Positions 1 through 38,722 of a stretch of DNA of 64,000 nucleotides are shown in pieces; the stretch's first letter is position 1, and each line of letters opens with the position of its first letter. The stretch covers positions 18,213 to 82,212 of the forward strand of contig NZ_CAXHZD010000006.1 of assembly GCF_964021855.1 (NCBI RefSeq), read 5' to 3'. The position numbers and the translations under genes are program-made. This DNA comes from an uncultured Sulfitobacter sp. (lineage in GTDB: Bacteria; Pseudomonadota; Alphaproteobacteria; Rhodobacterales; Rhodobacteraceae). The notes under the pieces were generated by a model that saw only the letters and a list, made by a program, of their open reading frames with translations, was not told the DNA's origin and ran no database searches.

Positions 1-1
1 T

Positions 2-21000: not shown

Positions 21001-24000
21001 CATCAACTTTGTGAACCCGGTCACAGGTGCCTATACCTTCCTGCGGGATGTTGTCTCGATTGATCCTGAATTCGGCGGCAATGATGTGATCAGCACGGGC
21101 CTGTCCACTGATATTATCTTTGGCGGTAACGGCGATGATGTGATCAACGCCGGAACGGTCGACAATGAAACCGACATTGTCTTTGGCGACAACGCCAAGA
21201 TCACCGTGAACGAAACCGGTGTCTTTACCGGGTCCACCGCTGCTGATCCAAGCGGTCAGGAATACGGCGTGATCAGCTTTAACTTTGGCAACGGCCGCTA
21301 TCGCCATGACACGACAGTTGATGGTGTCGCAGGCGCGGATGGATCGGCATCTGACAAGCCCGCACCGAAGGCAGAAGGCTGGAACGAACTGGACGGCGGT
21401 CGGGGTACCTACGGCGACGACGCCGCAGAATTCGTGCGCGACGAAAGCGGTGTGATCATGTCTGGTGTCACAATCGACTGGAGCGTGCGCGACTACAAAG
21501 GCCGCATCCGTAGCGCATATGACGATACCCATAGCGATATCCGTTACCCAGACACAGCAGACGAGCGCCTGTTCGAAGGATACCTCTATGCCGGTCACAA
21601 TGACACGCTGGTCGTAACGTTGAGCGGTCTTGATCGTCACTACGAGACATTTGATCTGTATCTCTATCTTGATGGTGATGACGGTAAGACGAAGCGTCGC
21701 TATGGTACTGTGCGTCAGGTCACCATCGGATCTGAGAGCTATTTCGTGAGCGACCCTGATAACGTGAACTTTGACGGCAGCCTGATCCGTGTGACATCGC
21801 AAGATCCGAATGCGCCGGGTCTGGGGAACTATGTCGTCGCGACGGGCCTATCTGGCGGAGAGATTACCATCGAGATCTCGATCCCATCAAACCAGCGCTA
21901 TGGTTATCCGGTGCTTTCGGGTCTGCAGATTGTTGGCCAGTCCTATAAAATTGACACATTCGAGACTGTCGCAGACAGCATCGGTGGCAATGATGTGATC
22001 CTGACCGGTGGTGGCGAGGATATTATCCTTGGCGGTGCCGGTGGCGACATGATCAACAGCGCTGGCGATGCGGATATGGGGCGCTTTGATGCTGACACGG
22101 TTATCGGTGACGGCGGCATCCTGACCTTCCTGCGTACCGGCGGCGTTGGCCCGGCTGAATTCGGCGAACTGCGCGAAATCGTAAGCCGCAATGGCGACGC
22201 GGGTCCGAACTACAACGACGTAATCGTGACAGGAAATGGCACAGACCGCGTGATTGGCGGGCAGGGCGATGACAACATCAATACCGGTGACATCTTCGTC
22301 CACAACGGCGTCGATGACGCAACTTCGGGCACAGATGTAATCGCTTGGGGCATGAACTTTGGCGCACAAGTCAATGAGGGTTGGGTCGACGGCGAAGCTG
22401 GTTATGTGGCGGGCGGCAGTTGGGTGAACTTTGTCGATCAGGGCAACTTTACGAAAACCTATTCCGAAACCCACGGTTGGGGCCGCCACTACCACACACA
22501 CACCTATCACAAACCTGTCGCCTCGATGCTGACGGCTGATGGTATCCGTGTCACTGTTGGCCAAGACCTAGAGTCCAAGCATGGCCGCGATGCCTATGTC
22601 CAAGACCATGATCAGATTAATGCCGACACTCAGAACGGCAGCCTGTTCAACGGCTACATCTACGCCAAACACAAGTCGGAACTGGGTGTTGATGTCTCGG
22701 GTCTTAGCAATATCTACGGCACTGGCAGCTATGACGTGTACCTTTATATCGATGCCGAGGATCGCGACGCAGCGCGCAATGGCGGTTATCGTCTGGTGTC
22801 CACCAATGGCGATATCATCAGCCTGAACGACCCGCGTGGTGCGAACTTTACCGGCGAATTTATTGAATATGATCCGTCGAACCCAAGCCTGCCTGCGAAT
22901 GTCGTGGTCTTCCGCGGCATAACTGGCGATGCATTCGAACTGCGGATCAACTCTGGCGGCTATTACAAATACGGCAAGTGGTGCTGGTACGATCACGACA
23001 CGCCAAGCATCGCAGGCTTCCAGATTGTTGGCGGTGCTGACAAAGATAACGTGGTTCAGCAAGGTGACTGGGATACCGATCTGGTTCTAGGCGATCAGGG
23101 CTTTATGCGGGTGTTTGACGACGCTGTGTTTGAATTTGCGTCGATGACCGGTGCCCCTGGAACGTCGAACGATACCATTCTGGGTGGGATTGACGGTGAT
23201 GTACTGATCGGTGGCGACGGAAACGATACGATCCGCGGCGAAGACGGCGATGACCGCATCGTCGGCGACAATGCGCATGTTATCATCATTGGTGGTAACA
23301 TCGTTGGTCTTGACCGCTTCTATGACAACAACAGAAAAGAATATCATCACAGCGAGCTCGACAAGCTTGACCCCTATACAGTCGTTGGGTTGCAGCTGAT
23401 TGACGTCACAGTGGGCGGCAACGACGTGATCGAAGGCGGCGGCGATAATGACTGGGCATGGGGCGGAACTGGCGACGATACATATGTATTCGCTGGCTAT
23501 GACCTGGGCACAGACCGCTTGGTCGAATCCGATGTTGTCGCAGGCGGCCACGGATCAAAGCATTATGGCCACGGTACAACGCCCGAAGGGCTGTTGAACG
23601 ACACAGGCGACGCGCTTGACTTCAGCGGCTTTGAGGGTCCGATTAATCTGGACTTGGGCAGCGACAGACGCCAGGTAATGCCGGGTGCCCACGCACATGG
23701 TAAGTACGGTCATGCACACGCCACGCTGTCGATCAAACTGTCCTCGGCTGGTGGTTTCGAAGATGTTTCCGGTTCCAACTACTCTGACGTCATCAAAGGC
23801 AATGACCGCAATAATGCCATTGCCGGAAATGGCGGCAACGACCATATCAAGGGCGTTTCCGGGTCGAACTTCTTGGACGGTGGCGATGGCCATGACCATA
23901 TAGACGGCGGATCGGGCCGGTTCGAAGACAGACGCGAGCATCGCTATGGCGACCTTGCCAGCCAAGTTATCATGGGCGGCGCGGGAGATGATTTGATCCA

Positions 24001-24451
24001 CGGCACCCGTGCAAATGATCTGATTGATGGCGAAGACGGCAACGACCGGATTTACAGCTACGGAGGCTCGGATATTGTGTTCGGTGGGGCAGGGAACGAC
24101 CGCCTGTACGTGTCAGGGTATAACAACATCGTCGTTGGCGGCGCGGGCCACGATTACATCTCGGGTCACCGCAAGTCTTACAACCATTTCGCCTTTGGTG
24201 ATCGCTATGGCCGCTACACCCCGTCAGGTCACGGCTATGGCCACTTTGGTAACTACTGCCACTGGTCCCACCGTTCGAATACATATGTCCATGGTGATCT
24301 GGACGACGCGTTGCGCACCATGGTGACGCAGCAGTTCCTAACGGCGTTTGCCCATGATTTTGCCCGCGCGGATTTCACATTTGATGTGCTCGGAACCAGT
24401 TCCTTGCGGTTCGCGCTGACGCCTTTTGTGACGTCAATCTCTGCCCCGTGA
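2..24451 (+). CDS. Giant secreted repeat protein (more than 8,138 aa inside the window, 5' end probably outside it): Ig-like/beta-sandwich repeats, Calx-beta-like modules, RTX-type GGxGxD Ca-binding repeats, CBM-like modules; T1SS-substrate-like adhesin
   Basis: This is a single uninterrupted ORF. The same frame is also open from nt 2 to the ATG at 35, and no Shine-Dalgarno (SD) sequence precedes 35, so the gene likely starts upstream of the window. Motifs seen: GGNGADIIFGGAGADAINGGNGADQIDSGAGDDSVDGGAGADLIF (nt 9401-9589); Calx-beta-like strands ANIADNDEAGIIVF, VEVIDNDSAKVLVF, LKLLDDDAPTVEI, VMAIDDEIIDGGD (nt ~12860-15960); C-terminal GNDRNNAIAGNGGNDHIKGVSGSNFLDGGDGHDHIDGGSG...GGAGNDRLYV...GGAGHDYISG (nt 23771-24165). 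Confidence 0.95.
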   Translation, partial: TDQTDANSVSTMVVYSSVFTVADIPETQTSGLSLNVGPVTIEAPSVGLDKLAFKDGRLILTIAIGADRAALAFGSTTPAGGTPSNTGGTSVVINGLLVKFDVGIDVLATITGGEPDIGFTGKWEVTADSLLGTIPEVLTFEAYAIKIGYDPDYDASKAPAEVLSDAGQKLVEIGTVKVTFPRFGLTGLITGDVTTPGLIVYENGFSLKTAQLIYSSLSSNPQSATRTDGQTGTIKFGSLLEFVDLRIGVTDFRVVFGQAVTFDGSIFVASGGAKFAPGKPVSADIRDRTTAELTDTVGAPDTEAIRLGLTFTDGRVDGFIWRMDTFRITLGPNLVLTGVDLNLDTGAANDEELISFAAIGAELTVGSVTLMGEARQFAFLGDGSFVTKRGFGVFIGVGSATGATFKWPAWLPIRITEIGVQWADIQAAPEKFVLTLSATITGLQGNPGLKFEGTVKGIQIDVGLLLDGKNPIIGIEALGVSVSGNLFGGQIEGTLIGGIINVDASGNEVPTLDTTTVVADRVFFVGVEAGYAFAGLSGFTIRFAMSELGPLGVLVTAQIPGGILLEPISGLTINNFTGGVDFFTSLPDITTPGELTGPAFQLPANVSVDGWLDMVRGQVLTQYRLMQANPSQSGFAAAFQAPMVFFNDTATTEIYTSELTFNGQVTIKISTDGKILVIGQLNFAADNLSLSARLYANLSKIAAGEATILFLAKIPDQVDIITIEGSLRFGFQTLLGDDVEIEIVQDRAANPTQELAGPGAGTEIGASAINGAGYIDVTFEDLGTAVLDKASVLDLAPELIITTAGVVLDDTLAPVHLTGTTYRFWVIGTATSPISYQYVNQGWSYLNEQTGEVLYSTVVNESSSAVGTATVVTGPWIDIRFIPEIGAELTAANMQAIAAGGAPFVLRNQAGEVVELKTTGEANDKRVIVGKDVIRYFLADTSLPLGKYTVTFTDGAWNRDGLANIATASQSFEIVSPSASIVGPFAKTETGYTADVNVLNSGAKQLIISFRAPSGNALNYASILDSLAEFTMTTPSGGSVTVGDPAAVRMVMGSNGAVTYEVISDAGMTQAEYYEYLTSEGITQFQYTLTGLTYAPGVYEISFDANAFRDAAGNQSIATATPIELVAEGATATLVNPGEGASIDVNRLGARSYIDIQFPTVPTDFTGYDHRSIIDAAPEFTLSGAGLNTIALDPAQAPTRIGENTYRYWLTGDFADGAETTSITVTAIAGAWSYTKAAADITVTGTVIDGVLQIGEVDAVTGIQNPLTLTGIFGAPPSGYVFDIESILDAGAEFTVTAPNGESYTAELVTTTDVVRADDGTGSDSAVQYQYAILLTGTVETTEAVTLTFGADLISYKSTSVETLTLVGANGGTGAINNYASYIDILITPATGDAAPDFAAGDLSKLTLTVGGAAGPAVVSLLDMGNGVTRVFLDGAVAVGDAVLTIAKDAFGADGAKNRALALNFHIAGAQGTIQNPGPDGTIGIGTLNGRGYVDLSFARPDGGLRIGSIIDLAPEFEFIGGNVTIAFDDTQAPEWLNPDDPTIDPDTITEDYRFRYWTTGTYTPGTTINRIASIDGEATVLRNDGTAADNAGTAGFVATTLDTSWIDIRFTPTFGDQIEFDTLGDEITVTGATLSGDAMRIGDGLTVRYFISGNVAAGSVNVTINAGTFSSGANAGEGSETSFQVLQLSGALADPVDGGVIGQLDLNNRGYIDVRFVKPSYAFEIDVASVLDLAPEVIFSATGGTITADLTQAPLYLGMDGDDAVFRIWYIGSFQGSDVADNVTVEFIGGSFNWLDTSGNTIDAVAANNSVELQVQSATSGFFLLLQLGTSELLDTGSFVNGAFTLTRADGSSLTVTGNTARAPPGQIELTITGGTSANPLVAGEFVTLSYGTDAWKYDDDIAIEAQATQTLSITSDLTNGYIDVTFAMLGDLTTNPLFALNIATLNGDEFTLSGAGSSVNILAIAPDDMGNGTYRYYTTGAFNTGTVFVKFEAGTWADLAGNTGAESTESFKVIDRVADGSAPADGDTSSRIFYIEIAGGIRYNVPGISDPLLEERGMARLTFGTYTDPDRGDVFRFTLKFSGTAKVYKLGNIGSIAGSFTIEDGGDTGRPEFWGVAAVQTNLSALAAFGLHVNGNALLQINLSGQERTETISLEGISGDLLGSKITGANVNALVLNRTASLFAEEAVDTTVRQAFAVRDVALDENATIALTKRFDGGVYQWRITSGASTYYVDQDGDNTLSLSSEAREFTMPAGSFAFEVQGSIKLTIPGGNPDTDALAELSGGFYISITRDRAEVFALANVVVGPSDAPLIEGRAQGLFIVNYSGANDGIAGKLSLERTGGSEEDGGSQANNDFAGIDPTQFRLDVTISLQFNTTLALQEFTVPTSFLGLLPPDAEPTVKISAGLPNFSDPDDLSAAPSVYFIASLKGSLTLFDAITLNGSLTLTVSSTPEFINGVDAAGGERTTSTVRLTGVVNGNIAYIGSVFGTVDLKFESIAETVNGQTTLTAGLVGRAQLSLVGGLAIPGVALDAAVSFSLEINTYDETMPLVTFLNDEEYVLAGTVGNARYSDAAIDANGFKTGTIQIANGLYLKFNAEMSIQNIVKLNGNFELSISKATGVIVIEAELDVNARVVGVLDNLSLQGKLVLSEGGMIIYGSFGINAGINGILEFKGQATFGLNTFSSARVISVGGQNVTVGSGVKLVIQGSVEFVGFATAAGKTTIAILSDRTEISFDVVFGLGGLNVRAAGAAGLYYTGVNITGIAIALNVSIDANIARIIDISASGRLTLNTTGSVQRIGSFTLAANSFSLALTGDVQFLKTIKFNASFNVTILNNAWNVNFNANINFFGIATLAANGWFKSDGTFDVSLRGGVLLGSRGFGMEGSFYFNVFYKPVGGVDTIGFSGSASVSLYGLGINWGGASLSFGANIPIGNGGSVPIRVSASASVKIVFVRIRLNLNFTIGYLQLPEPIKLAEVDNGNLILNMGDGNGDRGIGEGAEDETYVIEQIAPGTIRVTYSGREQVFTGVNRITGYGGAGNDVILVREGVTADLLFNGGNGIDLVDYQGSGKATINQGEAVTDFGDQITIGRFAQAESVVHGANVTRVLAAGETPSLLGDRIVSHSNQSISIFGLGGDDFIQQLGAGSATIEGGNGADIIFGGAGADAINGGNGADQIDSGAGDDSVDGGAGADLIFRTLGAAGILTVNGSGSEDTLYVTGSSRADTARLSRGSVVIRNVDNTRGATITGGVGTVQIQLLGGQDTIIVNDISGQGVSRLIIEDDLAVEGPGYTGSAASREGTTDNNADIVIINGTAAADTFALVQDDVDGTDIKVNATWNGATAVAIVLNDFRRDAGDKLFINAGGAGDVIDAHALTQNTVALELNGDAGNDTIIGSQYNDVIDGGADNDTITGGEGFDIFRDGGNTSVGDTLIETFTAYDFGLFEDRFVVGTLSGTSGDVWTAATVENINGIFENVILTGGNGVANRMVVNDLNRQIRVAGSVVSVAAFDGTVTLDAKSEGTPETYHINAPKGSDFVVNINDTGIGFATVRFDGSDDADLIIVNDDTLAVTGAATVTITHINTNQVNLNTAGGGDEITVQSTDIPLYIRSGLGDDTIRIGNAGSLTEIDALVDLDAYDVFGGGTSPIDRGSDTLLIDGSNDAHTSAGTLGLRNLAALEGWIDVTGFNLSAAGISYIAVENIEIDLGAGANIATITSTGLADKTTLRTGGGVDTVNLYAMNGPTFIETGTGVDSVVVGKPVMTTPVTTFTVNDILFGQLTINGGSEALAANEGNDTLRVSDNGDSAVDRGNRLTADEIIGLGMTVGIKYAGFETLVLETSNGNNELHVDGTHAGLTKIDMGDETVSPTDDSSNDVLNIERLGGPTEIKLGQGNDIVRVNYDEYGQQTFVNGLQSGSLSVTYVLELDGEQGSDFYQIGLAGEGTALIRLLDSGLPDQGADSAEINGTNRADLFLFRANLNPAVATGVVAALQLDANGDQIAGILERVEYNGALEGDIQVNGRDGDDIFVLDDTLATFNIFGDAGNDTFQVGQLFASARDASNPYNGLDGIDYYATTQVTLGFLSNGISKNATLNGGTGQDNFTVYSNKAELFLFGDEDDDSFLVRSFVRVDPNDPAAPYTNINGGQGADFVSYNINAPVRIDGGDGFDTLTIVGSEFGDDYVITENGVFGGGLFVSFVGLEKLVVDALQGNDTFYIESTNENVQVEIIGGIGSDNINIAGADLNAITEGGAITVVSNSLNGHNGLIQTIVSSNDARYNAIFAKDVVANIADNDEAGIIVFNDYDALRVFEDALTSPLLIHNSYGIALSRAPEDIVTITITPTRGTESSQAAGGKGVMVNGSEIYTTLTFDASNWDQVQYVTVTGVNDALAEGRQVINLRHTTVQGTISTDEQAYDGVVVADVLVEVIDNDSAKVLVFSRLEAGSTVDTIDADVVGEDVLLTANGDSIYVALSRAPTGPVTVTFNVNDGATVSFSGPSGTQSGSSVTIGFDSSNWNTPRLLQLAANDDNAPEGVHYTRVTPVITSGQDAFLGLGQGDIARGLAANINADISQTRNAVALYRSADIQIFRGTQNATISEVWTVTINGEEYSATFGAGATSLTVAQGLRDAIRFDARKPEGLTAVVISGVLRVEDTAGFSIDAKVQTPFYNNGFEIEATANTTMRVFIDGQAFELETLAPAGATMPVVGQRALEVAVVTLTSSVSDGTRNAAGGIVIGATWNIVLDDLTVSATAVTGDTLQSIVRRLIGKLAGSDYAASELYRSATIVPSIVGGITADATWNILLDGQLVTYTSVAADVPNGIYGIGEKIAEQITALNQNYVVSVRTGGAITVSRPLGNPFSIVSVSSNGVTDLVAAGANSIAPPQVVENAIVIFKRPEAAGVPPFGLQVVRLSNPAAPTSQNGASSSPLRVLSSTYWDYTSVSIAPITGVIAQGTTWGLRLSAADIAQGADAAILENYDYVAGQNNEQLAPSAFDLKLLDDDAPTVEIIESGNSTDLAEREEEDARVVDSFDVVLTGALTGNKWVIVDVTPLKTRTYNGDLAFDASANFGEANRVQVRVAAPIAELSFTGSAVAGEVWSVALYDDSTYQATILIVNYTVQASDQLSDIRGGLITQINAQAGYQAVLAGDAIKITRAGVTPTPRFFVEATITPDTRGTILTRTVPDFNFDNVLEIEFAGIPAVGETWDVTFVGKLYSQTVAAGDSLATLAAKLAASIQADDDARIAAGGARLYDVSVDGTVVSVQVLADKRATLAASGEITPVGTALADSDGAMVLRQYVKFDAGNWNVAQTITVMAIDDEIIDGGDAKVFAAFDERVNSIRGPISVIGGVSPTAVELNNPILLPGESNEKLPSGTADSIETTDGVTTVTDHALTHVNKLYGERPGFDPRINGTATIYDIATMGITGTSDRVDILSSAQDILSFASGTKIGEGTPFSVNLTVDGNDATVTGAAEVFGTPDQSAAVLGMLDWLEATVDLTAGATTGLYQITLSPTAGSTVGQEVFSYTTTAGNNFAGTIALELAKAINQSSTQFRARAVVNLVGETRLRIVEVGDATGGFDIGVVTPADAKVIIGGTPVAGQYAQAGVKWTMAAIRVLDTTAGATWTLSVDGTVRSALSTGDAASITQTLANKLPGSLRPVVSGSFATIAAALPANFATGSDRLYSYAPVNANLRVDEAEQVDTLTIFNGQSPAADVGVLTSTRLSGLGMGDDVVIAGKRILGGITYSGIEALDIRLGRNGDVLTIESTHEGKTRIDTGNGDDVVNVKSTSGHTFITTGQGNDIVNVGSDRGVLDQITGMLVLDMGDDAGDRLNLDDSLDVKANVMTLTGSRLTGLDMPSVAEIQQINVRAIGGTFTLSFAGSVGIATLGAFDYDAMSVSAIAAAAQSAREQIAAITGYDVTVEIIQTKNGIAYLVEFGGLAGGLDVAMLSVESTANLVAAPDTTTDVNVVEVRVGTTTPRRDNVEVLRLSADSGTFTLSFLVPDVNGIVRLQTTEAIAWDATEAQILAALDPILNPNNGYDFLPYTHNVDVDRLGGAIYLTFQGALADARIASIDTRGLGGTYTQTDISIATPVVGGIWTVTVSDLVTPTQIAGLPAAQSVFSYTAVAGDTAQTIARALADLIAAAQGPHLVTDAVDGVLTIISGSANPITVNVTGALGAAGQQTNRIATTLQKDGIGYHNVEFLDLTLGSNDDVLNIQGTTAHTTLHLGEGDERIYVSSEAAETLTSDTRFLTGHLNGITGLLNIDAGTGRHQLMISDEAAILGDGTSDQPAVITDNRAKAQAAASARGIDDTFSTVTDIYVVGIAPAAIGYTADAQGNFLSGVTYWTGFGDDTIFIDASHIRDIPGAQTVTSLNTGLGNDTVIITLDAGDGFFALNTQGPYNQYADVRDADTVTSPGTTRPLVIFGGQDNDKIDTGSVDDIVFGDRGVLEYLDETGAVSLRLGTGGLTDVTDGVARAPTSFKSTFLNVGGVDTINTFTGTDIIIGGQAGDVIDAGQGDNIVIGDNGEVLLATEAPNFGTFRYALISAFTVDATTGGDDIIRTGYGADLILGGFGNDTITANVGETATQSDAVNLILGDFGAAFWNDDGDLSTLDRVVSTDTFVGGNDTIRTGRSSDIIIGGDANDDIDASQGVNLVIGDSGEILSGAAATNIHAFGLALQTIRTIEDTRGGVDIIRTGDDTDIILGGQAGDDIDAAQGNNIVLGDNGYVIFETDAPNFGNLAIALVEISTTSPTTGGNDVIRTGFGADLIMGGGADDTITANVGETATQSDAINLIFGDFGAAFWNIDGNLATLDLVTSIDTAFGGRDIINTGRGDDIVLGGYERDEIYASEGANIVLGDSGLLESGASETNVPGFGLALRTLKSIADALGDDDKIATGASTDLIFGGNGNDMIDAGQGDNIVLGDNGTALFDSTVTNFGNLPIAILSVTTQSPTIGGNDMITTGLGNDIVFGGAKNDNIVTDFAGGFAGTDGQDIVLGDHGFINFVNPVTGAYTFLRDVVSIDPEFGGNDVISTGLSTDIIFGGNGDDVINAGTVDNETDIVFGDNAKITVNETGVFTGSTAADPSGQEYGVISFNFGNGRYRHDTTVDGVAGADGSASDKPAPKAEGWNELDGGRGTYGDDAAEFVRDESGVIMSGVTIDWSVRDYKGRIRSAYDDTHSDIRYPDTADERLFEGYLYAGHNDTLVVTLSGLDRHYETFDLYLYLDGDDGKTKRRYGTVRQVTIGSESYFVSDPDNVNFDGSLIRVTSQDPNAPGLGNYVVATGLSGGEITIEISIPSNQRYGYPVLSGLQIVGQSYKIDTFETVADSIGGNDVILTGGGEDIILGGAGGDMINSAGDADMGRFDADTVIGDGGILTFLRTGGVGPAEFGELREIVSRNGDAGPNYNDVIVTGNGTDRVIGGQGDDNINTGDIFVHNGVDDATSGTDVIAWGMNFGAQVNEGWVDGEAGYVAGGSWVNFVDQGNFTKTYSETHGWGRHYHTHTYHKPVASMLTADGIRVTVGQDLESKHGRDAYVQDHDQINADTQNGSLFNGYIYAKHKSELGVDVSGLSNIYGTGSYDVYLYIDAEDRDAARNGGYRLVSTNGDIISLNDPRGANFTGEFIEYDPSNPSLPANVVVFRGITGDAFELRINSGGYYKYGKWCWYDHDTPSIAGFQIVGGADKDNVVQQGDWDTDLVLGDQGFMRVFDDAVFEFASMTGAPGTSNDTILGGIDGDVLIGGDGNDTIRGEDGDDRIVGDNAHVIIIGGNIVGLDRFYDNNRKEYHHSELDKLDPYTVVGLQLIDVTVGGNDVIEGGGDNDWAWGGTGDDTYVFAGYDLGTDRLVESDVVAGGHGSKHYGHGTTPEGLLNDTGDALDFSGFEGPINLDLGSDRRQVMPGAHAHGKYGHAHATLSIKLSSAGGFEDVSGSNYSDVIKGNDRNNAIAGNGGNDHIKGVSGSNFLDGGDGHDHIDGGSGRFEDRREHRYGDLASQVIMGGAGDDLIHGTRANDLIDGEDGNDRIYSYGGSDIVFGGAGNDRLYVSGYNNIVVGGAGHDYISGHRKSYNHFAFGDRYGRYTPSGHGYGHFGNYCHWSHRSNTYVHGDLDDALRTMVTQQFLTAFAHDFARADFTFDVLGTSSLRFALTPFVTSISAP
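2318..5800 (+). repeat. Intragenic array of beta-sandwich (Ig-like) units, each opening with [GSP][YW][IV]D[IVL]x[FI]
   Basis: The motif occurs 8 times: GYIDVTF (~2318), PWIDIRF (~2621), SYIDIQF (~3455), SYIDILI (~4141), GYVDLSF (~4474), SWIDIRF (~4813), GYIDVRF (~5131), GYIDVTF (~5764). Most copies are followed by LDLAPE[FLV] and later Y/FR[FY]W..G. Confidence 0.6.
9401..9589 (+). repeat. Internal RTX-type nonapeptide (GGxGxDxUx) block, about 6 repeats
   Basis: Translation is LGGDDFIQQLGAGSATIEGGNGADIIFGGAGADAINGGNGADQIDSGAGDDSVDGGAGADLIF, with a 9-residue period that matches the hemolysin-type Ca-binding repeat consensus. Confidence 0.85.
19270..21215 (+). repeat. Diverged tandem super-repeat, period ~603-606 nt (~201 aa), about 3 copies plus a partial leading copy, built from xGxDxIxGGxGxDxI units
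   Basis: Anchor motif APNFGTFRYALISAFTVDATTGGDDIIRTGYGADL starts at nt 19591, APNFGNLAIALVEISTTSPTTGGNDVIRTGFGADL at 20191, and VTNFGNLPIAILSVTTQSPTIGGNDMITTGLGNDI at ~20799. The internal string NVGETATQSDA[VI]NLI[LF]GDFGAAFWN is repeated almost exactly. DNA identity between copies is clearly below 100% by eye, roughly three quarters. Confidence 0.8.
23771..24165 (+). repeat. C-terminal RTX-like Ca-binding repeat block of the giant protein
   Basis: Repeats seen: GSNYSDVIKGNDRNNAIAGNGGNDHIKGVSGSNFLDGGDGHDHIDGGSG...GGAGDDLIHGTRANDLIDGEDGNDRIYSYGGSDIVFGGAGNDRLYVSGYNNIVVGGAGHDYISG. A further block, GGIDGDVLIGGDGNDTIRGEDGDDRIVGDN, lies at ~23183-23275. Confidence 0.8.
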
Positions 24452-26427: not shown

Positions 26428-26431
26428 GCGC

Positions 26432-28582
26432 ATGGCCGGTTCGCTATTCTCTCCTTCGTGGTACAGGGTCAAAGACCTGAAGCCGCGGCTGCGCAGACAT
26501 GTGAACATCCATCGTCATGATTACCGTGGCCGTATCTGGTTTATCCTTCAGGATCTGGCCACGGGTCGGTCACACCGATTTTCACCTGCCGCCTATCGCA
26601 TGGTCGGGCTGCTTGATGGCAAGCGCAGCTTGGGCGAAGTCTGGGACATCGCAAACGAACAGCTGGGCGAGCGCGCACCGACCCAAGACGAGGCGATCCG
26701 GCTGCTGGGGCAGCTTCATTCAGCGGATGCTTTGGTCGCGGATGTATCCCCCGATAGTCGTGAACTGTTTCGCCGTCACCAACGTCACAAACGGATGGAG
26801 ATCAAACAAAAGATCTGGTCGCCGTTGGCGGTACGCATTCCAATCTGGGATCCCGACCGGTTTCTTACTGCAACGTTGCCTTTCGCGCGGCCGTTTCTGA
26901 CCAAAACCTTTGCGGTGATCTGGTTGCTGCTGGTGCTGACCGCAGGGGTGTTTGCGGTAATGAACATCGGCGCGTTAACCTCAAACCTTACCGACCGTGT
27001 GTTGAACCCCGGTAATCTGGCGGTCCTGTGGCTGGTCTATCCGGTGGTAAAGGCGTTCCATGAATTGGGGCACGGCTATGCCGTCAAGAAGTACGGCGGC
27101 GAGGTGCACGAGATCGGGATCATGTTTCTGGTGCTGATCCCTGTCCCTTATGTCGATGCGTCAGCGGCGTCGGCGTTTCGGGACAAACACAAGCGGATGC
27201 TTGTTGGTGGCATCGGTATCATGATTGAACTGCTGCTGGCCTCTATCGCCTTGTTTGTTTGGCTCAATGCTGAATCCGGTGCCGTGCATGCGATTGCCTT
27301 TAACGTGATGCTGATTGGCGGTATTTCGACGTTGTTGTTCAATGGGAATCCCCTGCTGCGTTTTGACGGCTATTACGTATTGGCGGATTGGATCGAGATC
27401 CCCAATCTCAGCGGGCGATCCACCAATTACCTGAACTACCTGATACAGCGATATTTGTACGGGATGCGCGACGCAGACCAGATTACATCGCTGCGGTCCG
27501 AGCGGGTATGGTTCGTTTTCTACGGCATAGCAGCGTTCATCTATCGCATGTTCATTATGTTCGCGATTATCGCCTATATTGCCGGCCGCTTTTTTATCAT
27601 CGGGGTGGTGCTGGCCATATGGGCCGCGACCACACAGCTTTTGCTGCCCATCGGAAAAGGGATTAAGTTTTTGTCAGGAAGTCCAAAGCTCCGTACCAAT
27701 CGGCCTCGGGCTATTATCACAACTGTTGGCATTATCGCGGTTATTCTAGCCGGGTTTTTCCTGATGCCGTTCCCGTCTTACAGCATCGTGGATGGCGTCG
27801 TTTGGCCCAGCCAACAAGCGCAGGTTAGGGCAGGGACCAACGGGTTCGTCACGAGGGCTGTCATTTCCACGGACCAACCGGTGGAACCTGACGATTTGAT
27901 GCTGCAGCTTGATGACCCTTTCATGCGCGCACGCCTTGATCTGATCGACGCGCAATTGGCCGGGCTTGAGATTCAGCGCAGCGCATTAATTCGCAGCGAT
28001 CGTGTGCAATCCGCCCTGATCGCTGAAGAAATCGACGTGGTATTGAGCGACCGCGCGCGCCTTGTTGACGAACTGGATGCGCTTGATATTCGGGCCCCCC
28101 GGTCTGGTATTGCCGTGCTGCCTAACGCCGCTGATCTGAAAGGTTCATTTATCGCAAAGGGCAGTGTTGTGGGCTATGTCGTGTCCCCTCAGGATACCCA
28201 GACCGTGCGCGCGATGGTAAGTCAGAACAACATCGATCTTGTGCGGAACGACACCCGTTCCGTCAGTGTCATCCCGGTGGAATGGAACCCCGAACCGCTG
28301 CAAGCTGAGATTTTGCGCGAGGTGCCGGGTGCCACGCAGCAATTGCCGACGCCCGCCTTGGGAACCGCAGGCGGGGGCAAGGTGCCTGTTGATCCGGGTG
28401 ATCCAAACGGGGTGCAGACGCTGGGACGTTTTTTTGAAATTGAAATCCTGATGCAATCTCCGTCCGACGATATCTTGTTGGGGCGGCGGGTTCGGGTCCG
28501 GTTTGATCACGGGTACACGCCGCTAGGGTTTCAGGCCTACCGGTCGCTGCGGCAGCTGTTCTTGAGGCTATACAATGTCTGA
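26432..28582 (+). CDS. Polytopic M50/site-2 metalloprotease fused to an N-terminal PqqD/RRE-like domain and a C-terminal HlyD-like periplasmic domain
   Basis: HELGH lies at nt 27059-27073 and a second S2P motif, NGNPLLRFDGYY, lies downstream. At least 7 hydrophobic helices are visible. The N-terminus YRGRIWFILQDLATGRSHRFSPAAYRMVGLLDGKRSLGEVWDIANEQLGERAPTQDEAIRLLGQLHSADALV looks like a PqqD-type winged helix. The C-terminus LDALDIRAPRSGIAVLP plus a short coiled coil looks like a membrane-fusion (MFP) domain. The gene starts 4 nt after the upstream stop. Confidence 0.9.
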   Translation: MAGSLFSPSWYRVKDLKPRLRRHVNIHRHDYRGRIWFILQDLATGRSHRFSPAAYRMVGLLDGKRSLGEVWDIANEQLGERAPTQDEAIRLLGQLHSADALVADVSPDSRELFRRHQRHKRMEIKQKIWSPLAVRIPIWDPDRFLTATLPFARPFLTKTFAVIWLLLVLTAGVFAVMNIGALTSNLTDRVLNPGNLAVLWLVYPVVKAFHELGHGYAVKKYGGEVHEIGIMFLVLIPVPYVDASAASAFRDKHKRMLVGGIGIMIELLLASIALFVWLNAESGAVHAIAFNVMLIGGISTLLFNGNPLLRFDGYYVLADWIEIPNLSGRSTNYLNYLIQRYLYGMRDADQITSLRSERVWFVFYGIAAFIYRMFIMFAIIAYIAGRFFIIGVVLAIWAATTQLLLPIGKGIKFLSGSPKLRTNRPRAIITTVGIIAVILAGFFLMPFPSYSIVDGVVWPSQQAQVRAGTNGFVTRAVISTDQPVEPDDLMLQLDDPFMRARLDLIDAQLAGLEIQRSALIRSDRVQSALIAEEIDVVLSDRARLVDELDALDIRAPRSGIAVLPNAADLKGSFIAKGSVVGYVVSPQDTQTVRAMVSQNNIDLVRNDTRSVSVIPVEWNPEPLQAEILREVPGATQQLPTPALGTAGGGKVPVDPGDPNGVQTLGRFFEIEILMQSPSDDILLGRRVRVRFDHGYTPLGFQAYRSLRQLFLRLYNV

Positions 28583-30569
28583 TCGCATGATCATGCGACC
28601 GGGTCTGTTGGGCGGCTTTTATCCGGAACGCAGTGATGAAAGGCTCAGCACGCCGGACCGGATTATGGCCAATGCCTATGGCCGTCTGCAGCAGGTTTTT
28701 GCGCGGCGTCCTGTCTCGAAACGTCTGTTCTTGAGGCGGGTAAAGCGGGAGGGTCACCAACTGCAAGACCTTAGCAACTCAGAATTAGCTGAGATGCGTG
28801 TTGCCTTGGCAGAAGACTTGCAACTGAACGGATTGGGACGTCAAAATACTGCTGAGGCATTTGCCCTCGTGCGCGAGGTATCAGGGCGCGTTTTGGGGAT
28901 GCGACATTTTGATGTCCAGCTGGTTGGTGGCCTGATCATGCTGCAAGGGCAGATCGCCGAAATGGCCACAGGCGAGGGAAAGACCCTGACGGCCACGCTG
29001 ACTGCCGCCGTTATGGCATTGTCCGGGGTGCCGGTGCATGTGGTTACGGTCAATGATTTTCTGGCCAGCCGCGATGCGGATTGGATGCAGCCGCTGTTTG
29101 CTTTCTTGGGACTTAGCGTTGGTGTGATCCTTGAGGATATGGACGTTGACGAACGCCGTGCCGCCTATGCCTGCGACATTACATATTGCACCAACAAGCA
29201 GCTCGCGTTCGATTATCTAAAGGATCGCCTGATCCTTGAGGCAGAAACGCGGCCCCTGCATATGGCACTTGAGGGGTTGTTGCATGATCGCGCGCGACGG
29301 GAAGAGGTCATGATGCGTGGGCTGTGCTTTGCCATCGTTGACGAGGCGGATTCTGTATTGGTGGACGAAGCGCGCACACCCCTGATCATCGCACAAAAGG
29401 GCGACGCGTCTGAGATGGAAACGATCTATCGCCAAGCGATCAACACCGCCCGAACCCTGCAAACGCCACGCGATTTCACCATGTCGGAACGTGACTTCCG
29501 GATTGATTTCACCGACCTTGGCAAAGCGCAGCTTAGACGGTCTACGCAGCAGTTGGGTGGTGTGTGGGCAACTGAAACCCACCGCGAGGAATTGGGCCGT
29601 CAGGCATTGTCGGCGTTATGGCTGTACAAGCGCGACAAACATTATCTGGTTCAGGACGAAAGCATTCAAATCGTCGATGAATACACGGGCCGTGTTATGG
29701 CAGACCGCTCTTGGGAACGCGGCCTGCATCAGATGATCGAGGTCAAAGAAGGTGTCGACATTTCGATGCGCCAAGAAACCTTGATCCGGATCAGCTATCA
29801 AAAGTTTTTTCGCCGATATATCCGCCTGTCTGGCATGACCGGCACCGCGCAAGAGGTCGCCGGAGAGTTAAGCTCGGTCTACCGGCTGCGCACGCGCAGG
29901 GTGCCCACGAATAAGCGGTCGCGTCGGTGGGACAAAGGCGAATACTGCTATGCCACGAGTGATTATAAGTGGCAGGCGGTTCTACGCGAGGTCGTTAGGA
30001 AGCACAAAAAGGGCAGGCCTATTCTGATCGGGACGCAATCGGTCGAGGCGTCGGAACACTTAAGCGGGCTGTTGACCCAGCAAGGGCTGCACCACCGCGT
30101 GTTGAACGCCCGCCAAAATGAAGCGGAGTCCGAAATCATCGCCCAAGCGGGTCTGACGGGTCGTATTACCGTTGCGACGAATATGGCGGGCAGGGGGACG
30201 GACATCTCGTTGGATGATACCACTCGTGCCGCTGGCGGCCTGCATGTCATTGCGACCGGGCGCCATGATGCCGCGCGCATTGATCGGCAACTGTACGGCC
30301 GCGCGGCCCGCCAGGGGGACCCGGGAAGCCACATCACCTTTGTGTCGCTCCAAGATGATTTGCTGCGCGTGTTCTACGGGAGCAAGTTAAAACCGCTGAT
30401 CGCGCTGACCTCGTGGGGCAGGGGGTGGGTGCCCGGATTTATCGCGCGCCCCTCTGTGAACCTAGCGCAATGGACCAGCGAAAAGCGGAACAGTAGGATC
30501 CGGCAAAACCTGCTAAAGGCAGATGACAGCCTTGATGAATTGCTTGCATTTAGCGGGCGCGGAGAATGA
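28575..30569 (+). CDS. SecA-like motor ATPase (664 aa): NBD1, shortened PPXD and NBD2 present; most of the helical scaffold, wing domain and C-terminal tail absent
   Basis: Motifs seen: MATGEGKTLTATL (Walker A, nt 28962-28985); IVDEADSVLVDEARTPLII (DEAD at 29340-29351); TVATNMAGRGTDI; GGLHVIATGRHDAARIDRQLYGRAARQGDPGS. As I remember E. coli SecA, these correspond to MRTGEGKT, DEVDSILIDEARTPLII, TNMAGRGTD and GRSGRQGD. Only about 75 aa follow motif VI. The start overlaps the upstream stop (ATGTCTGA). Confidence 0.9.
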   Translation: MSDRMIMRPGLLGGFYPERSDERLSTPDRIMANAYGRLQQVFARRPVSKRLFLRRVKREGHQLQDLSNSELAEMRVALAEDLQLNGLGRQNTAEAFALVREVSGRVLGMRHFDVQLVGGLIMLQGQIAEMATGEGKTLTATLTAAVMALSGVPVHVVTVNDFLASRDADWMQPLFAFLGLSVGVILEDMDVDERRAAYACDITYCTNKQLAFDYLKDRLILEAETRPLHMALEGLLHDRARREEVMMRGLCFAIVDEADSVLVDEARTPLIIAQKGDASEMETIYRQAINTARTLQTPRDFTMSERDFRIDFTDLGKAQLRRSTQQLGGVWATETHREELGRQALSALWLYKRDKHYLVQDESIQIVDEYTGRVMADRSWERGLHQMIEVKEGVDISMRQETLIRISYQKFFRRYIRLSGMTGTAQEVAGELSSVYRLRTRRVPTNKRSRRWDKGEYCYATSDYKWQAVLREVVRKHKKGRPILIGTQSVEASEHLSGLLTQQGLHHRVLNARQNEAESEIIAQAGLTGRITVATNMAGRGTDISLDDTTRAAGGLHVIATGRHDAARIDRQLYGRAARQGDPGSHITFVSLQDDLLRVFYGSKLKPLIALTSWGRGWVPGFIARPSVNLAQWTSEKRNSRIRQNLLKADDSLDELLAFSGRGE

Positions 30570-30580
30570 TGGAGACGATA

Positions 30581-31384: not shown

Positions 31385-31471
31385 ACGCGAGGCTGACAGC
31401 GTCTCTTTATAGAGTTTTAAGGATCACGGTGAGACAGTTCGTTGTTTTCCCGCAAGGCTGCCATATTCGCC

Positions 31472-31654
31472 TTAAATTCTTGCGCCGGTATATTGTTTGG
31501 TAAAAACCTGAATGCAAGCAACTCCGTCCTGCTCCCACAGCAAGGTCCCCTGTACGATACCGTAATTCCCAGTCCGCACACAGGCTATCTGTTCTTTTGA
31601 AGCCGGTTTCGCATCGTGAGATGCCTTCCATAGATTCACATTTTGGTGGATCAT
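31472..31654 (-). CDS. Hypothetical small protein (60 aa)
   Basis: The ORF has a good SD (AGGAG 8 nt upstream of the ATG, read from the reverse complement of nt 31655-31670). I recognise no family. It sits in an AT-rich islet. Confidence 0.3.
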   Translation of the reverse strand: MIHQNVNLWKASHDAKPASKEQIACVRTGNYGIVQGTLLWEQDGVACIQVFTKQYTGARI

Positions 31655-31823: not shown

Positions 31824-32552
31824 TCAGCTATTATTACGCGAAAATATATTGCTTATATGAGCGTCGAATTCATTCCAGGTAATCACAGCGCGATTTCCAG
31901 CATTTCCATGATAATATGAGCGTCCGGTTGACGTCGGAAATCCTGCCCAGATGCGTGCGAGGTTTTCCATAAACTGGTGCCTGCTGATCTTACCTTTGAG
32001 GAAAGCACTAAATCCAGCGTCTTCAAGCAGGATATCCGCCAGGCGATCCTGAACCTGAGGTGTAAAGCGTGTATCGTGAGACAGGCCCAGCTCATGCACG
32101 AGGTTTCTCAATGTGAGGGGGATGAACTGGTATCGGCCAATTGCGTGCTGCTGGCGTGGTGTGTCATCAATCCATTGATAAATCTCACCTATCGTCATCT
32201 GGGTAGGTAATGCTGATGGTTTAACCTTTGCTCCGTATTGCACAGCATCATACCCATGGGGCCCTGCCTCAGCCAGGCCAATAAGACTTTTCAAATATGT
32301 AGCGGAGCTGGAGCCATCACTGTCAGGCGCTACAAATGAGCTTTCCTTCTTAGTGTTCTTGGCGGGAGTGACATTGAGATGAATACGGCTACTTGGCTGA
32401 TTAGGCAGGAATGAGAATTCTAAGTTACCACTGTTTATCAGGTCGCTCGTCGCGAAAGAAGCGGTGTCAGCTTGAACCGTCTCCCCGACCAATAAAGCAA
32501 AGAGTGGTAAGGCGATAATTGCTTCTCTAAAATTCATCTTTTTGGTCTCCAT
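31824..32552 (-). CDS. Secreted lysozyme-like enzyme resembling phage lambda R / GH104 lytic transglycosylase
   Basis: The signal peptide is MNFREAIIALPLFALLVGETVQA. The likely start is the ATG at 32537, with GGAG 9 nt upstream. Core motifs are LAEAGPHGYDAV...IGRYQFIP...FTPQVQDRLA...ARIWAGFP. From memory, lambda R has WSEG..GYDV..GRYQLL..FSPKSQD..IWASLP. Confidence 0.7.
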   Translation of the reverse strand: METKKMNFREAIIALPLFALLVGETVQADTASFATSDLINSGNLEFSFLPNQPSSRIHLNVTPAKNTKKESSFVAPDSDGSSSATYLKSLIGLAEAGPHGYDAVQYGAKVKPSALPTQMTIGEIYQWIDDTPRQQHAIGRYQFIPLTLRNLVHELGLSHDTRFTPQVQDRLADILLEDAGFSAFLKGKISRHQFMENLARIWAGFPTSTGRSYYHGNAGNRAVITWNEFDAHISNIFSRNNS

Positions 32553-32893: not shown

Positions 32894-35800
32894 TTATGTG
32901 CCGAGAAACTGATCCAACTGGTCCCAAAGGGAGTTGTCGAGTAATAAGTTGAATCGGAAATAGAAACCTTCCTGATACAGGTCAGCTGACCGAGCGGTCT
33001 TTCCTTTGGCCTTGTTGTACCCGATGGCCAGCATGGTGCCCTTGGTTGGGACAAACCCAAATTCGGCACCCAGCCCGTTGGTCGTGTTGCCAGCATCATC
33101 CCAAAGGTGCGCCGCGTTTATGCCTATCTGAAAGCGGTCATCAGCGAACTCGTAGTTCACCCCGGCCTGCAGCAATTGTGTTGTTGAAGCAGCCGAATTG
33201 CTGTCGCCGACGTGGGCTTTTTGGTGCTGACCCGCATATTTGCCATTCAGGCGTAGATCGGAACCTGCTTCGTAAGCAGCATCGGCGGACCAAAGATGGC
33301 TTTCAGTTGTACTGTATTTCTCCTCGAGGCGGTGCTCATACCAGGCGAGAACTTCCAGTCGCGGGTCTGATAGCGGGCGGTATGCTCCACCAAGCCGAGT
33401 ACGCATTCGCCGTTGATTTTGTCCATTGCGTTGATCCAGTGCAATTCGGCTCCGACCTAGGACGGTAATTTCGGGTGTGATCTGACCGGCAAGGCCAAGG
33501 CTTGCATAATAGGTGTCGCCTGAGTTTTCGAACGTTGCATCGAAATCCGCATCGCCAACCCAGCCGCCATCGCCGGAGTCCCATTTCACCCCGACCGCGG
33601 TGCTTGTTAGCTCGCTCTCGTTGGTTTCCATCGAGCGCGAGTGTTCGATTCCAAGGCTAAGCGAAGTAGCTTTGTTCAGCTTGAAATCGGCGTCGACGGC
33701 TTGGGTCAGAACGGTATCTGTCTGCCACCCCCCATTGCTTAGTTCCGTCCGACCGCTAACCCATTCGTTCAGCGTGAAGGTAAAGCCATGCGTCGCGCGA
33801 GACATCACGTTTTTGTCGTCAAACCGCAGTTCGTACTCGCCATGGACACGCCAACCTGGCGCGGCTTCGCGGTACATGCCCAATGTTAGTTCTATTGGTG
33901 CATCGCCGGCACTCAATGGATGCCTAAGTTGCGCTTGTATCACGGTATTTGGGCGGTCTTTTGGCGTCCAATGTGTGCCAAGAACGAGTGACGTTTGGTT
34001 TTTGGAAGCACCCTGCAAACGGTCATAACGATACTCAAGCCCGATATCGCCACGCAGATATTTGCTAAGCTGCCGTGTGTATAGCGCTTCAACGGACACC
34101 CGATCAGTATTATTGATCCGGTCACGTACCAATTCGGCTCCGAGCTCGATATCGCTTAACCGGTCGATCTCGTACCCGTAGTTCAGCCGCGCCTGGGTTG
34201 TGCCAGAACGTGCCAGACTGCCGCGCGCCAGAAAGTTTGTTCCGGTGTGAACTGTCGTAAGACTTAGGCGCTGTCGTTCGGTTTGGATTTCGTATGATAG
34301 GCGGGCGGCACCGGCTATTTTGCCGTCAGGGTCTTCAGAACGTGCAACTTCCGCTTCCCAGATGGCACCGAACTTGTCTTCGTGACGAAGATAGCCAGAC
34401 TGCAACCGTTCACGGGATGGGTTTCCGGTTGGCGCATCGGCATGGACAGCACGTGCACCGATGGTGGTACGCTCGCCCAAAGCATAGTTCACTTCGCCAC
34501 CATATAGCCAATAGGTCTCGGACCCTGCCGTTTCCACCTCATATGTTACGCGGATCGAAACGAGATTGCCTTCCCGATCAAACTGACGGACGGGCGCGTT
34601 GAAAGTGATTGTATTGCGAAAAAAGTCGAGAATGTAATCCGTGCCGCGGCGCATAGAGGTTGAGGACAGAATATCGCCGCCCTGTTTGTCACGAACGAGT
34701 ATTTCGACTCGTTCAGTCCCCTGAACATAGCTGCCTAGTTCCAGATCATATGGGCCTGAAACACCACGCCCTCGTATTTCTTGCACCTTCTGCTCTTGCG
34801 CAGTGCGCGCGCCAAATACCGTGACAGATACCTTGTCGTTTTCCCAGTGGGCCTTGGCTCCTGTCGCTACGCGGCGCATGCCGTCCAGTTTCAGCGCACT
34901 TGCTTCGGGTTCAGTGGCGATATCACCGTAAAGAATATAGGATCTACCCTTCTCGACCTTTACGAAGAGGTTACCCGATGATTGTGCGTCTTGGCCGCGT
35001 TCGGAGCTATCGCCATACACTGGGTAGTATTCATCGCCACGAACGTCGCGGAACAAACGATCTTCGGTATCACGATCCGAGCGGTAGCGCAGGGTCAACA
35101 ATGCGTCTCCACGGATCGCACCTTTCAGATACATTTCGCCGCGCAGGCCCGTTGCTGTATCTTCAAACGAACTGAAGCGGTCTTTATCCAACAGCGTGCC
35201 GCTGTTTTGACCCAGCGATACTGCCCCTTCGATGACGCCGATTAGGACGCGTTCTTGAAGATCGGGAGTAAAGGTAACGGCGACTTCGGCGGTGCCAAAG
35301 CTGCCAGTCACAGTAATGAGGTCTTGCCCCGCAATCTGTGGGGGAATTATGCCGAAAGTCGCCTCGCCATTGTCGAGGTAGGCCTGAACACCGGGGGTGC
35401 CAGGGCGAATGTCGGTGACGTCCCAAAGAGCACGGCGGGCACTTAGTGTCACCGTACCTGAGGCAGGCACCGGTAATCCGCGGGCATCCAAAACACGCAC
35501 AACAACAGGCACAATGGAAGCCGGCGAAGCAGCGGCCTTTTCGGGCATGATGATCTCGAACTTTGAGGGCTTACCGGGGGCGATCAGCTTGATTTCTTTG
35601 CGCATTCGTTCAATGCCGAAACCGTCTTTACCGATCAGGGTCAGGGTGTTTTCGCCCGCGTTCAACTTGACAGCAGTGAATTCCATCGCCTGAACATTGG
35701 TCTCTTCCCACTTGGTACGCTCCCCGATCCGGTCCGAGCCTAGCGCGCGCCCGTTAAGCAATAATGCTAAGGTTAAGTCAGCTTTCCCTTTGACGCGAAT

Positions 35801-38632: not shown

Positions 38633-38722
38633 CAGTCGGCTCCTTTCAAAATTCAAGTTTGGGGATTGGCGGCTGATGGTGACCCCGGCCGAGGGACGGG
38701 AGCCGGGGCCACGAAAGCCTGC

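Follow-up and report, generated by a model that had tools for sequence, protein, structure and literature searches.

A truncated SecA as the probable motor of a proposed export module beside giant repeat proteins in Sulfitobacter and other bacteria

In this study, we examine a truncated SecA encoded in a 64,000-nucleotide stretch of DNA from an uncultured Sulfitobacter sp. (contig NZ_CAXHZD010000006.1; 'the window' below means this whole stretch), where five consecutive genes on the + strand encode a giant protein, an adaptor with a GAF domain (GAF-adaptor), a fusion of a PqqD-like domain, an M50-type metalloprotease and an adaptor (M50-adaptor), the truncated SecA and a small adaptor. The truncated SecA probably serves, on the cytoplasmic side, as the ATPase motor of a dedicated trans-envelope exporter that resembles a type I secretion system (T1SS) and has no ATP-binding cassette (ABC) transporter, with the giant repeat protein as its likeliest cargo. 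The gene is the Sulfitobacter-lineage member of a known, uncharacterised kind of SecA, termed 'secondary SecA_DEAD domain protein', and the idea that such a SecA stands in for the ABC transporter was published in 2015 and is not new (Kamneva, Poudel & Ward 2015, PLoS One, PMC4452313). The adjacency of giant genes, the LEPR-XLL leader on their products and the PqqD-type domain on the M50 protein appear to be additions to that description.

A SecA without the two-helix finger

The truncated SecA keeps the motor, the PPXD clamp and most of the long scaffold helix, and is without the wing domain, IRA1 with its two-helix finger, and the Zn/SecB tail. The initial annotation had called it a SecA paralogue with the motor retained, and Pfam agrees, matching SecA_DEAD (residues 51-432, 1.4e-104), SecA_PP_bind (residues 282-389, 9.1e-24, model positions 3-110 of 110) and P-loop_SecA (8.1e-58) to the protein of 664 amino acids (aa). 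All four motifs listed there as intact (MATGEGKT, VDEADSVLVDEARTPLII, TNMAGRGTD and GRAARQGDPGS) were located in this open reading frame (ORF). The reported loss of the two-helix finger, wing domain and Zn tail also holds: SecA_SW, which covers the wing and scaffold and IRA1 with the two-helix finger, was unmatched in the Pfam search, the protein ends at about E. coli SecA residue 665 of 901 in a MAFFT alignment (B. subtilis ~603-611), and the C-terminal linker and Zn/SecB-binding tail of E. coli SecA are missing. The stretch past motif VI, put at ~75 aa, counts 80 aa.

Two other parts of that description needed correction. The long helical scaffold, given as missing, is represented by a confidently predicted 37-residue helix (621-657), the last element of an AlphaFold2 model built from 85 family members (pLDDT 89.6, pTM 0.87), which aligns with E. 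coli 625-665. Moreover, the PPXD had been given as ~95 aa against ~150 aa, and the spacing from TPLII to DKHY is in fact 81 aa, 16 fewer than the 97 aa of E. coli (MAFFT); this modest difference and the near-full coverage of the Pfam model rule out a reduced PPXD as a hallmark of the truncated SecA. The same alignment shows ~25 extra aa at the N-terminus and a 19-aa insertion immediately ahead of Walker B relative to E. coli SecA, and the 29-aa variable insert of the E. coli NBD2 is not present.

All NCBIfam models of SecA and SecA2 match the protein, each far under its cut-off, whether for housekeeping SecA (PRK12904, 636.5 versus 814 bits; TIGR00963, 634.1 versus 800) or for SecA2 (TIGR03714, 477 versus 930; TIGR04221, 465 versus 725; TIGR04397, 574 versus 1085; NF012136, 404 versus 1100). 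The best sequence match in the PDB is C. difficile SecA2 (5.8e-138; residues 61-655 against 31-611 of the chain), and B. subtilis SecA aligns over residues 64-653 (chain 34-603). Top Foldseek matches of the model were all SecA, with the best TM-score, 0.79, to 5EUL and 6ITC, both substrate-engaged SecA-SecY complexes.

These resemblances raise the possibility of a SecA2-like accessory motor at the housekeeping SecYEG, whose substrate at the inner membrane, for passage or insertion, would be the giant or else the membrane proteins of the module itself, leaving to the adaptors and TolC the periplasm-to-outside step alone. The PPXD and the long scaffold helix contact SecY in canonical SecA (PDB 3DIN), and the truncated SecA retains the PPXD and most of this helix; in addition, its closest solved structure by sequence is a SecA2, its model superposes best on SecY-bound SecA, and its clade lies beside actinobacterial SecA2 (Kamneva et al. 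2015, PMC4452313). Such a role would nevertheless leave the tight coupling to a polytopic M50-adaptor unexplained, the SecA2 models score far under their cut-offs, and the LEPR-XLL leaders described below are without the long hydrophobic core of a Sec signal peptide. Furthermore, known SecA2 proteins (C. difficile 6T4H/6SXH, M. tuberculosis 4UAQ), likewise second, non-housekeeping paralogues with special cargo, retain their helical C-terminal domains, among them the two-helix finger and IRA1 that are missing here. Their solved chains are all about 780 aa, compared with 664 aa, and they act with SecYEG or SecY2, and their genes do not come with those of adaptors, TolC or M50 proteins, whereas the context of the truncated SecA is one of adaptors and an M50 protein and not of SecY2/Asp genes. 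Taking both sides together, we consider work at SecYEG rather unlikely.

E. coli SecA-N68 (PDB 5K9T; Foldseek rank 18) likewise consists of motor and PPXD without IRA1, wing and tail; it is, however, an engineered fragment, and the natural family adds a conserved N-terminal extension, the 19-aa insertion, most of the scaffold helix and a conserved LAFSGxxE segment. SecA-N68 has a deregulated ATPase and is not known to perform translocation. Since the removal of IRA1 in this fragment deregulates the SecA ATPase, the family probably needs another brake, and one may speculate that the conserved N- and C-terminal segments or partner proteins supply it.

A length-constrained family

By sequence, the truncated SecA belongs to a large, length-constrained family of about 650-670 aa. 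A library of 1.84 billion representatives, clustered at 50% identity, was searched, and the best 150 clusters examined are all SecA homologues of ~640-690 aa, save a few fragments and one protein of 1,240 aa. Among 85 family members, 38-90% identical to the truncated SecA of the window, Walker A, DEAD, DEARTPL, GMTGT, TNMAGRGTD, motif VI and Tyr357 show no variation or are conserved to at least 90%. In the MAFFT alignment, the counterpart of Tyr357 is E. coli Tyr326, a residue that we take to be critical in the interaction with preproteins. Conservation in these members extends to an N-terminal 'RP....G.YPER...LDR' segment and to the 'LAFSGxxE' segment at the C-terminus.

Decay of a duplicated secA, or an error of assembly, would account for the truncation itself and nothing further. 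A pseudogene or chance truncation is refuted by the size of the family, a length of 650-670 aa held over the best 150 clusters, the conservation of the catalytic motifs and a synteny that extends across at least six phyla; additionally, an identical protein occurs on several independent contigs of uncultured Sulfitobacter. The probability that we leave to a dead gene or artefact is vanishingly small.

The 1,240-aa relative (P0187) is of the family type over its N-terminal 550 aa (47% identity, N-terminal extension included) and continues with a normal SecA_SW region and more; candidate explanations are an intermediate form, a fusion and a chimeric assembly. A fusion of the truncated SecA to an adaptor or M50 domain was not found among the relatives, the only long one, P0187, carrying SecA_SW instead. 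Orthologues are inconsistently named by PGAP and in public annotation, as 'prepilin peptidase', 'DEAD/DEAH box helicase', 'translocase' or 'preprotein translocase subunit SecA'.

Copies of the module are plasmid-borne in Rhizobium, Mesorhizobium, Sinorhizobium/Ensifer, Methylosinus and Pseudosulfitobacter, and this location in several genera argues for an accessory system, not the cell's sole SecA. No second secA lies within the 64-kb window; in the genomes analysed by Kamneva et al., a canonical SecA accompanies the secondary copy (PMC4452313).

A gene neighbourhood conserved across phyla

Taking one genome per species, we collected 80 loci from Alpha-, Beta- and Gammaproteobacteria, Nitrospirota, Myxococcota, Desulfobacterota and Acidobacteriota, at least six phyla in all, and searched their ORFs with the window proteins (denominators below are loci with enough flank). 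Of 68 loci, 65 have the M50-adaptor gene directly upstream of the truncated secA; the GAF-adaptor gene is on the upstream side in 61 of 62, and the small adaptor gene follows just downstream in 55 of 71. A TolC/OEP gene stands directly downstream in 12 loci (Pfam OEP up to 1.6e-52), as well as on the Methylosinus plasmid; there is no TolC-type gene in the 64-kb window. Neither the larger downstream ORFs that were scanned in the window nor the annotated plasmid loci showed an ABC transporter. Clustering of flanking ORFs recovered as recurrent families TolC/OEP and very large PKD, LamG, cadherin-like, DUF4347 or RTX proteins.

The gene overlaps reported at first were found as described, with 8 nucleotides (nt) shared between the M50-adaptor gene and the truncated secA (ATGTCTGA) and, downstream, either a 4-nt overlap with the small adaptor gene (start 30566) or an 11-nt gap (start 30581). 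The 8-nt overlap is common to Sulfitobacter, Rhodoplanes, Thioclava and Pseudosulfitobacter. Comparative evidence for a functional tie between the truncated SecA and the M50-adaptor is strong, given their adjacency and shared overlap, and in this respect the link drawn by the initial annotation stands; the other half of that proposal, physical docking of the truncated SecA on the M50-adaptor, we infer, as we do its independence from SecYEG. The whole five-gene set is shared with Rhodoplanes, whose RTX-repeat giant has 7,450 aa, and with Thioclava, whose giant has 12,773 aa; in both, the outer genes differ. A promoter and terminator scan of 24300-32000 returned fewer sites than shuffled controls and is uninformative.

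In about 21 loci, a gene of ~100 aa encoding a DUF3467 protein lies between the giant and GAF genes (for example, L086 15556-15876, L087 14599-14904 and L090 15577-15918). Its carriers are Methylocystaceae, rhizobia, Accumulibacter, Nitrospira and Terriglobia, and it is absent from this window and from the Sulfitobacter/Thioclava/Rhodoplanes subgroup with RTX giants. The DUF3467 protein may be a chaperone-like fifth component; a sequence search of the PDB, made to see whether it is SecB-like, gave chance matches only. In Nitrospirota loci (L014, L015, L018, L031, L041 and L071), two tandem small adaptors follow the truncated secA, in most cases with a TolC/OEP gene directly after them.

Giant neighbours and the LEPR-XLL leader

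Among the 37 loci whose 10-kb flanks are complete, 29 have an ORF of at least 1000 aa on the same strand. This ORF often runs out of the locus; it is found upstream of the GAF gene in some loci and, in others, downstream of TolC or the small adaptor. Giants adjoining the module in Rhodoplanes, Thioclava, Methylosinus, Mesorhizobium and Pseudosulfitobacter measure 7,450-12,773 aa. Where their N-termini are visible, a basic stretch is followed by (F/L)-E-x-L-E-P-R-x-L-L-S-A-D, a leader found on 13 flanking ORFs in three phyla. This number includes the complete plasmid giants of Methylosinus sp. C49 (8,847 aa, leader 'FDTLEPRVLLNAD'), Mesorhizobium ciceri (10,518 aa, 'FEALEPRLLLSAD') and Pseudosulfitobacter (12,737 aa, 'LETFEPRVLLSAD'). 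The NCBIfam model NF012209 ('LEPR-XLL', model LEPR-8K) matches one flanking ORF over its cut-off, DUF4347 often comes next after the leader, and none of the leaders has a long hydrophobic core of the kind found in Sec signal peptides.

This adjacency also bears on the idea that the cargo is something other than the giant, such as a small leader-bearing peptide akin to ribosomally synthesized and post-translationally modified peptides (RiPPs) or an envelope component, the giant being an incidental or regulatory neighbour. PqqD/RRE-M50 units are typical of peptide natural-product pathways, and 8 of the 37 full-flank loci have no large neighbour; set against this, giant LEPR-XLL genes adjoin the module in unrelated phyla, on either side of it, and neither the annotated loci inspected nor the most-shared flanking families included peptide-modifying enzymes. 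We hold a different cargo to be improbable.

A search with the first 800 aa of the window's giant fragment returned no giants. The internal stretch at 35..2434 (+), which has no Pfam match, shares 38-62% identity with proteins of ~450-1,400 aa, stand-alone or partial, from metagenome-assembled genomes of Sterolibacteriaceae, Actinomycetota and Chloroflexi, and from this similarity appears to be a mobile module.

The PqqD-M50-adaptor protein

PqqD-type domains are the leader-peptide recognition elements of RiPP pathways. Residues 18-401 of the 716-aa M50-adaptor match the NCBIfam model daptide_HExxH (NF041824) over positions 1-360 of 379 (1.2e-43), with a score under the cut-off (150 versus 300). 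Over 47 orthologues, Pfam finds HlyD_3 in 38, Peptidase_M50 in 27 and PqqD in 23, the Methylosinus orthologue exceeding the PqqD gathering threshold; H210, E211, H214 and D312 are invariant in the family. Moreover, the C-terminal domain of an AlphaFold2 model matches MexA/AcrA/MacA (about 5e-12). RiPP leader proteases with RRE(PqqD)-M50 architecture (daptide_HExxH NF041824; YydH/LiaK NF058609) thus align with residues 18-401, and the 716-aa protein differs from them by a periplasmic adaptor domain, a SecA partner and a likely substrate of ~10,000 aa instead of a short peptide.

Nearly all of the relatives listed have a length of 716 aa, with 57% identity or more, in a range that extends from Sulfitobacter to symbionts among the Gammaproteobacteria. 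Their conservation is tighter than that of the truncated SecA partner (about 48%), a pattern in the sequences that suggests many simultaneous contacts. Public names of the M50-adaptor include 'PqqD family protein', 'peptidase M50', 'HlyD family...' and 'hypothetical'.

Given this architecture, the truncated SecA might instead be an ATP-dependent unfoldase that feeds the M50 protease with the leader or the entire chain, for processing or quality control, and is no translocation motor, transport being powered by the proton-motive force, Ca2+-driven folding or an ABC transporter elsewhere. The PqqD and M50 unit matches the daptide leader-protease model lengthwise, 8 nt are common to the protease gene and the secA-like gene, and the RTX repeats of the cargo suggest that a classical T1SS could export it. 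Yet three adaptors and, in several phyla, TolC are co-encoded without another energy source, the annotated loci showed no ABC genes, and the known activity of SecA is the vectorial movement of polypeptides. A feeder role is therefore unlikely in our view.

Proposed mechanism and its difficulties

From the domain content, the conserved catalytic residues, the cross-phylum synteny, the adjacency of giants and the LEPR-XLL leaders on giants observed in these loci, we infer physical interactions, a cargo, a direction of transport, a cleavage of the leader and an inner-membrane pore that would combine as follows. The giant would carry the N-terminal leader seen in orthologous loci, a basic stretch followed by F-E-x-L-E-P-R-x-L-L-S-A-D, which the PqqD-type domain of the 716-aa membrane protein would capture. 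The M50/site-2-type domain would cleave the leader; it may in addition form the inner-membrane passage or serve as a dock. The truncated SecA would grip the unfolded chain in its PPXD/NBD2 clamp and thread it by ATP hydrolysis, and the three adaptor domains would form a periplasmic tube to a TolC-type channel, whose gene is adjacent in some phyla and would be elsewhere in this genome.

If so, the module could amount to a distinct Gram-negative secretion type, in which the truncated SecA and the PqqD-M50-adaptor replace the ABC transporter and giants of 7,000-13,000 aa, among the largest proteins of bacteria and selected by LEPR-XLL, leave N-terminus first through an adaptor/TolC duct. We put this fuller proposal forward tentatively, at slightly short of an even chance.

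Several points weigh against an exporter of this kind. The giant in the window ends in a C-terminal RTX block, and in classical type I secretion RTX repeats accompany C-terminus-first export by an ABC transporter; a transporter for this RTX giant could be encoded elsewhere in the genome. The leader on the window's giant is assumed by homology, since its N-terminus lies ~10.8 kb outside the window, and the absence of a large neighbour in 8 of 37 full-flank loci means that the cargo may there be different or encoded at a distance. Regarding the M50-adaptor, the window protein falls under Pfam significance for both PqqD and M50, its N-terminal domain is poorly modelled (pLDDT 29-46), and we know of no case in which an M50/site-2 protease fold conducts whole proteins. 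Finally, in exponential-phase Methylobacterium extorquens AM1, the GAF gene alone of the module is expressed (PMC4452313).

Relation to known systems

The module corresponds to the one whose SecA was termed 'secondary SecA_DEAD domain protein' (for example, META1p2399-2402 of M. extorquens AM1), for which Kamneva et al. (2015, PMC4452313) noted the loss of SecA_SW, neighbours with GAF+HlyD, Peptidase_M50+HlyD, HlyD/biotin-lipoyl and sometimes OEP, and no ABC transporter, and proposed SecA_DEAD as the ATPase and M50 as the membrane component of a type I-like system. The type is the same, SecA_DEAD with PPXD and an absent or fragmentary SecA_SW, and the window genes agree with the description at every point open to testing. 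Cargo, PqqD, giant proteins and adhesins are not mentioned in that paper (PMC4452313), whereas the present analysis ties in LEPR-XLL giants, PqqD and DUF3467 and extends the range to Rhodobacterales, Myxococcota, Desulfobacterota, Acidobacteriota and rhizobial plasmids. Experimental follow-up of the module was not found, the citing work found being one 2017 paper and the 2023 giant-gene preprint; likewise, links of the module to LEPR-XLL giants, PqqD or DUF3467 were not found stated in the searchable literature, whose coverage is incomplete.

Compared with canonical SecA, the truncated SecA shares the motor and PPXD and has neither SecA_SW nor Zn tail, scoring below the equivalog cut-offs. T1SSs for giant RTX adhesins (HlyBD-TolC; LapBCE/LapA) have in common with the module the adaptors, TolC (in other loci) and a giant, repeat-rich cargo. 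They differ in that no ABC transporter was found near the module, which has three adaptor-type proteins, one fused to M50 and one to GAF, and in that the T1SS signal is C-terminal and the candidate signal of the module, LEPR-XLL, N-terminal.

SecA_DEAD and PPXD are also embedded in giant proteins of Omnitrophota and Actinobacteria (West-Roberts et al. 2023, 10.1101/2023.11.21.568195). There, too, the SecA motor is without scaffold and wing and a normal SecA coexists; the motor is, however, a domain of the giant itself, in contrast to the separate 664-aa protein of the window, which sits in an operon with adaptors and an M50 protein. In Chlorobi, one genome with a secondary SecA_DEAD protein was reported in 2015 (PMC4452313), and a 2026 preprint, whose subject is the giant symbiosis proteins of Chlorobium chlorochromatii, names Cag_1676 as a horizontally acquired secA and credits the export of these giants to T1SS/sap genes (bioRxiv 10.64898/2026.03.19.712371).

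Features of the window

Coordinates of the module and its domains are collected in Table 1. The giant gene is cut by the window edge: the first ATG in its window frame is at position 35, and the same gene encodes 11,756 aa on ENA contig NODE_42 (L001), with ~10.8 kb of 5' sequence beyond the window. Three of the module proteins (GAF-adaptor, M50-adaptor and small adaptor) have adaptor domains. The small adaptor scores over the NCBIfam cut-off for RND_mfp (3.1e-38) and matches Pfam HlyD_D23 (4e-21); GGAG lies 6-7 nt ahead of the ATG at 30581, and the ENA call is likewise 267 aa, with 30566 as the alternative start.

Table 1. Module genes and domains in the window (nucleotide positions are those of the window)
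Feature	Residues	Nucleotides	Strand	Details
Giant gene, 3' part (~8,150 codons)		1..24451	+	Open frame from base 2; no stop before 35
RTX nonapeptide repeats near giant C-terminus		~23430-24120	+	Pfam HemolysinCabind 1.9e-30
GAF-transmembrane-adaptor protein, 614 aa		24583..26427	+	Pfam, NCBIfam, hydropathy
GAF domain, cytoplasmic N-terminal region	179-315	25117-25527		GAF_2 2e-10
Transmembrane helix of GAF-adaptor	346-364			Hydropathy
Periplasmic membrane-fusion domain of GAF-adaptor	~372-600			HlyD_3 8e-18, HlyD_D23 9e-16, RND_mfp 2.6e-21
PqqD-like/M50-type metalloprotease/adaptor fusion, 716 aa		26432..28582	+	
PqqD/RRE-like leader-binding domain, cytoplasmic N-terminal (predicted)	about 18-105			
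Polytopic transmembrane domain of 716-aa protein	~151-445			Contains NPLLRFDGYY
HELGH of 716-aa protein	210-214	27059-27073		
Periplasmic adaptor domain of 716-aa protein	446-716	27767-28579		
Truncated SecA ('secondary SecA_DEAD domain protein'), 664 aa		28575..30569	+	ORF listing and Pfam
N-terminal extension, family-specific	1-60			
NBD1 Walker A	129-137	28959-28985		MATGEGKT at 130-137
DEAD box	256-259	29340-29351		Within VDEADSVLVDEARTPLII (255-272)
PPXD	~273-389	29391-29741		
NBD2	~446-612			TNMAGRGTD at 535-543
Motif VI	568-584			GRAARQGDPGS at 575-585; 80 aa remain C-terminal to it
Scaffold helix	621-657	30435-30545		AlphaFold2 prediction
Conserved C-terminal end				LAFSGxxE
Small periplasmic adaptor (membrane-fusion), 267 aa, signal-like N-terminal segment		30581..31384	+	RND_mfp, HlyD_D23

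Downstream of the module, 31824..32552 (-) encodes a 242-aa ORF with a signal-like N-terminal segment and no Pfam match; called on Sulfitobacter contigs and not at that position in Rhodoplanes or Thioclava, it is probably outside the module. A second group of large surface-type proteins follows, at 32894..38656 (-), 38723..41362 (-) and 44326..50199 (+), with 1,920, 879 and 1,957 aa and DUF11, SdrD_B, GEVED and NPCBM_assoc domains. By its appearance, the last third of the 1,920-aa protein, at the C-terminus, may be an outer-membrane beta-barrel, and a LuxR-type response regulator (42477..43091, -) lies amid the group.

Significance

The system is widespread and at present poorly annotated, and the bacteria concerned include the marine Roseobacter group, rhizobia, methanotrophs, nitrifiers, Accumulibacter and Nitrospira. 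If the proposed mechanism is true, it would explain how proteins of ~10,000 aa are exported without a Sec signal peptide or a nearby dedicated ABC transporter, and a concrete, testable role would follow for the LEPR-XLL motif, now an orphan, and for the DUF3467 gene. Moreover, it would place a SecA motor outside the Sec translocon, one that moves polypeptides without the two-helix finger and without SecY; as the family naturally has no two-helix finger, it would bear on the debate over whether the finger pushes the polypeptide or only regulates.

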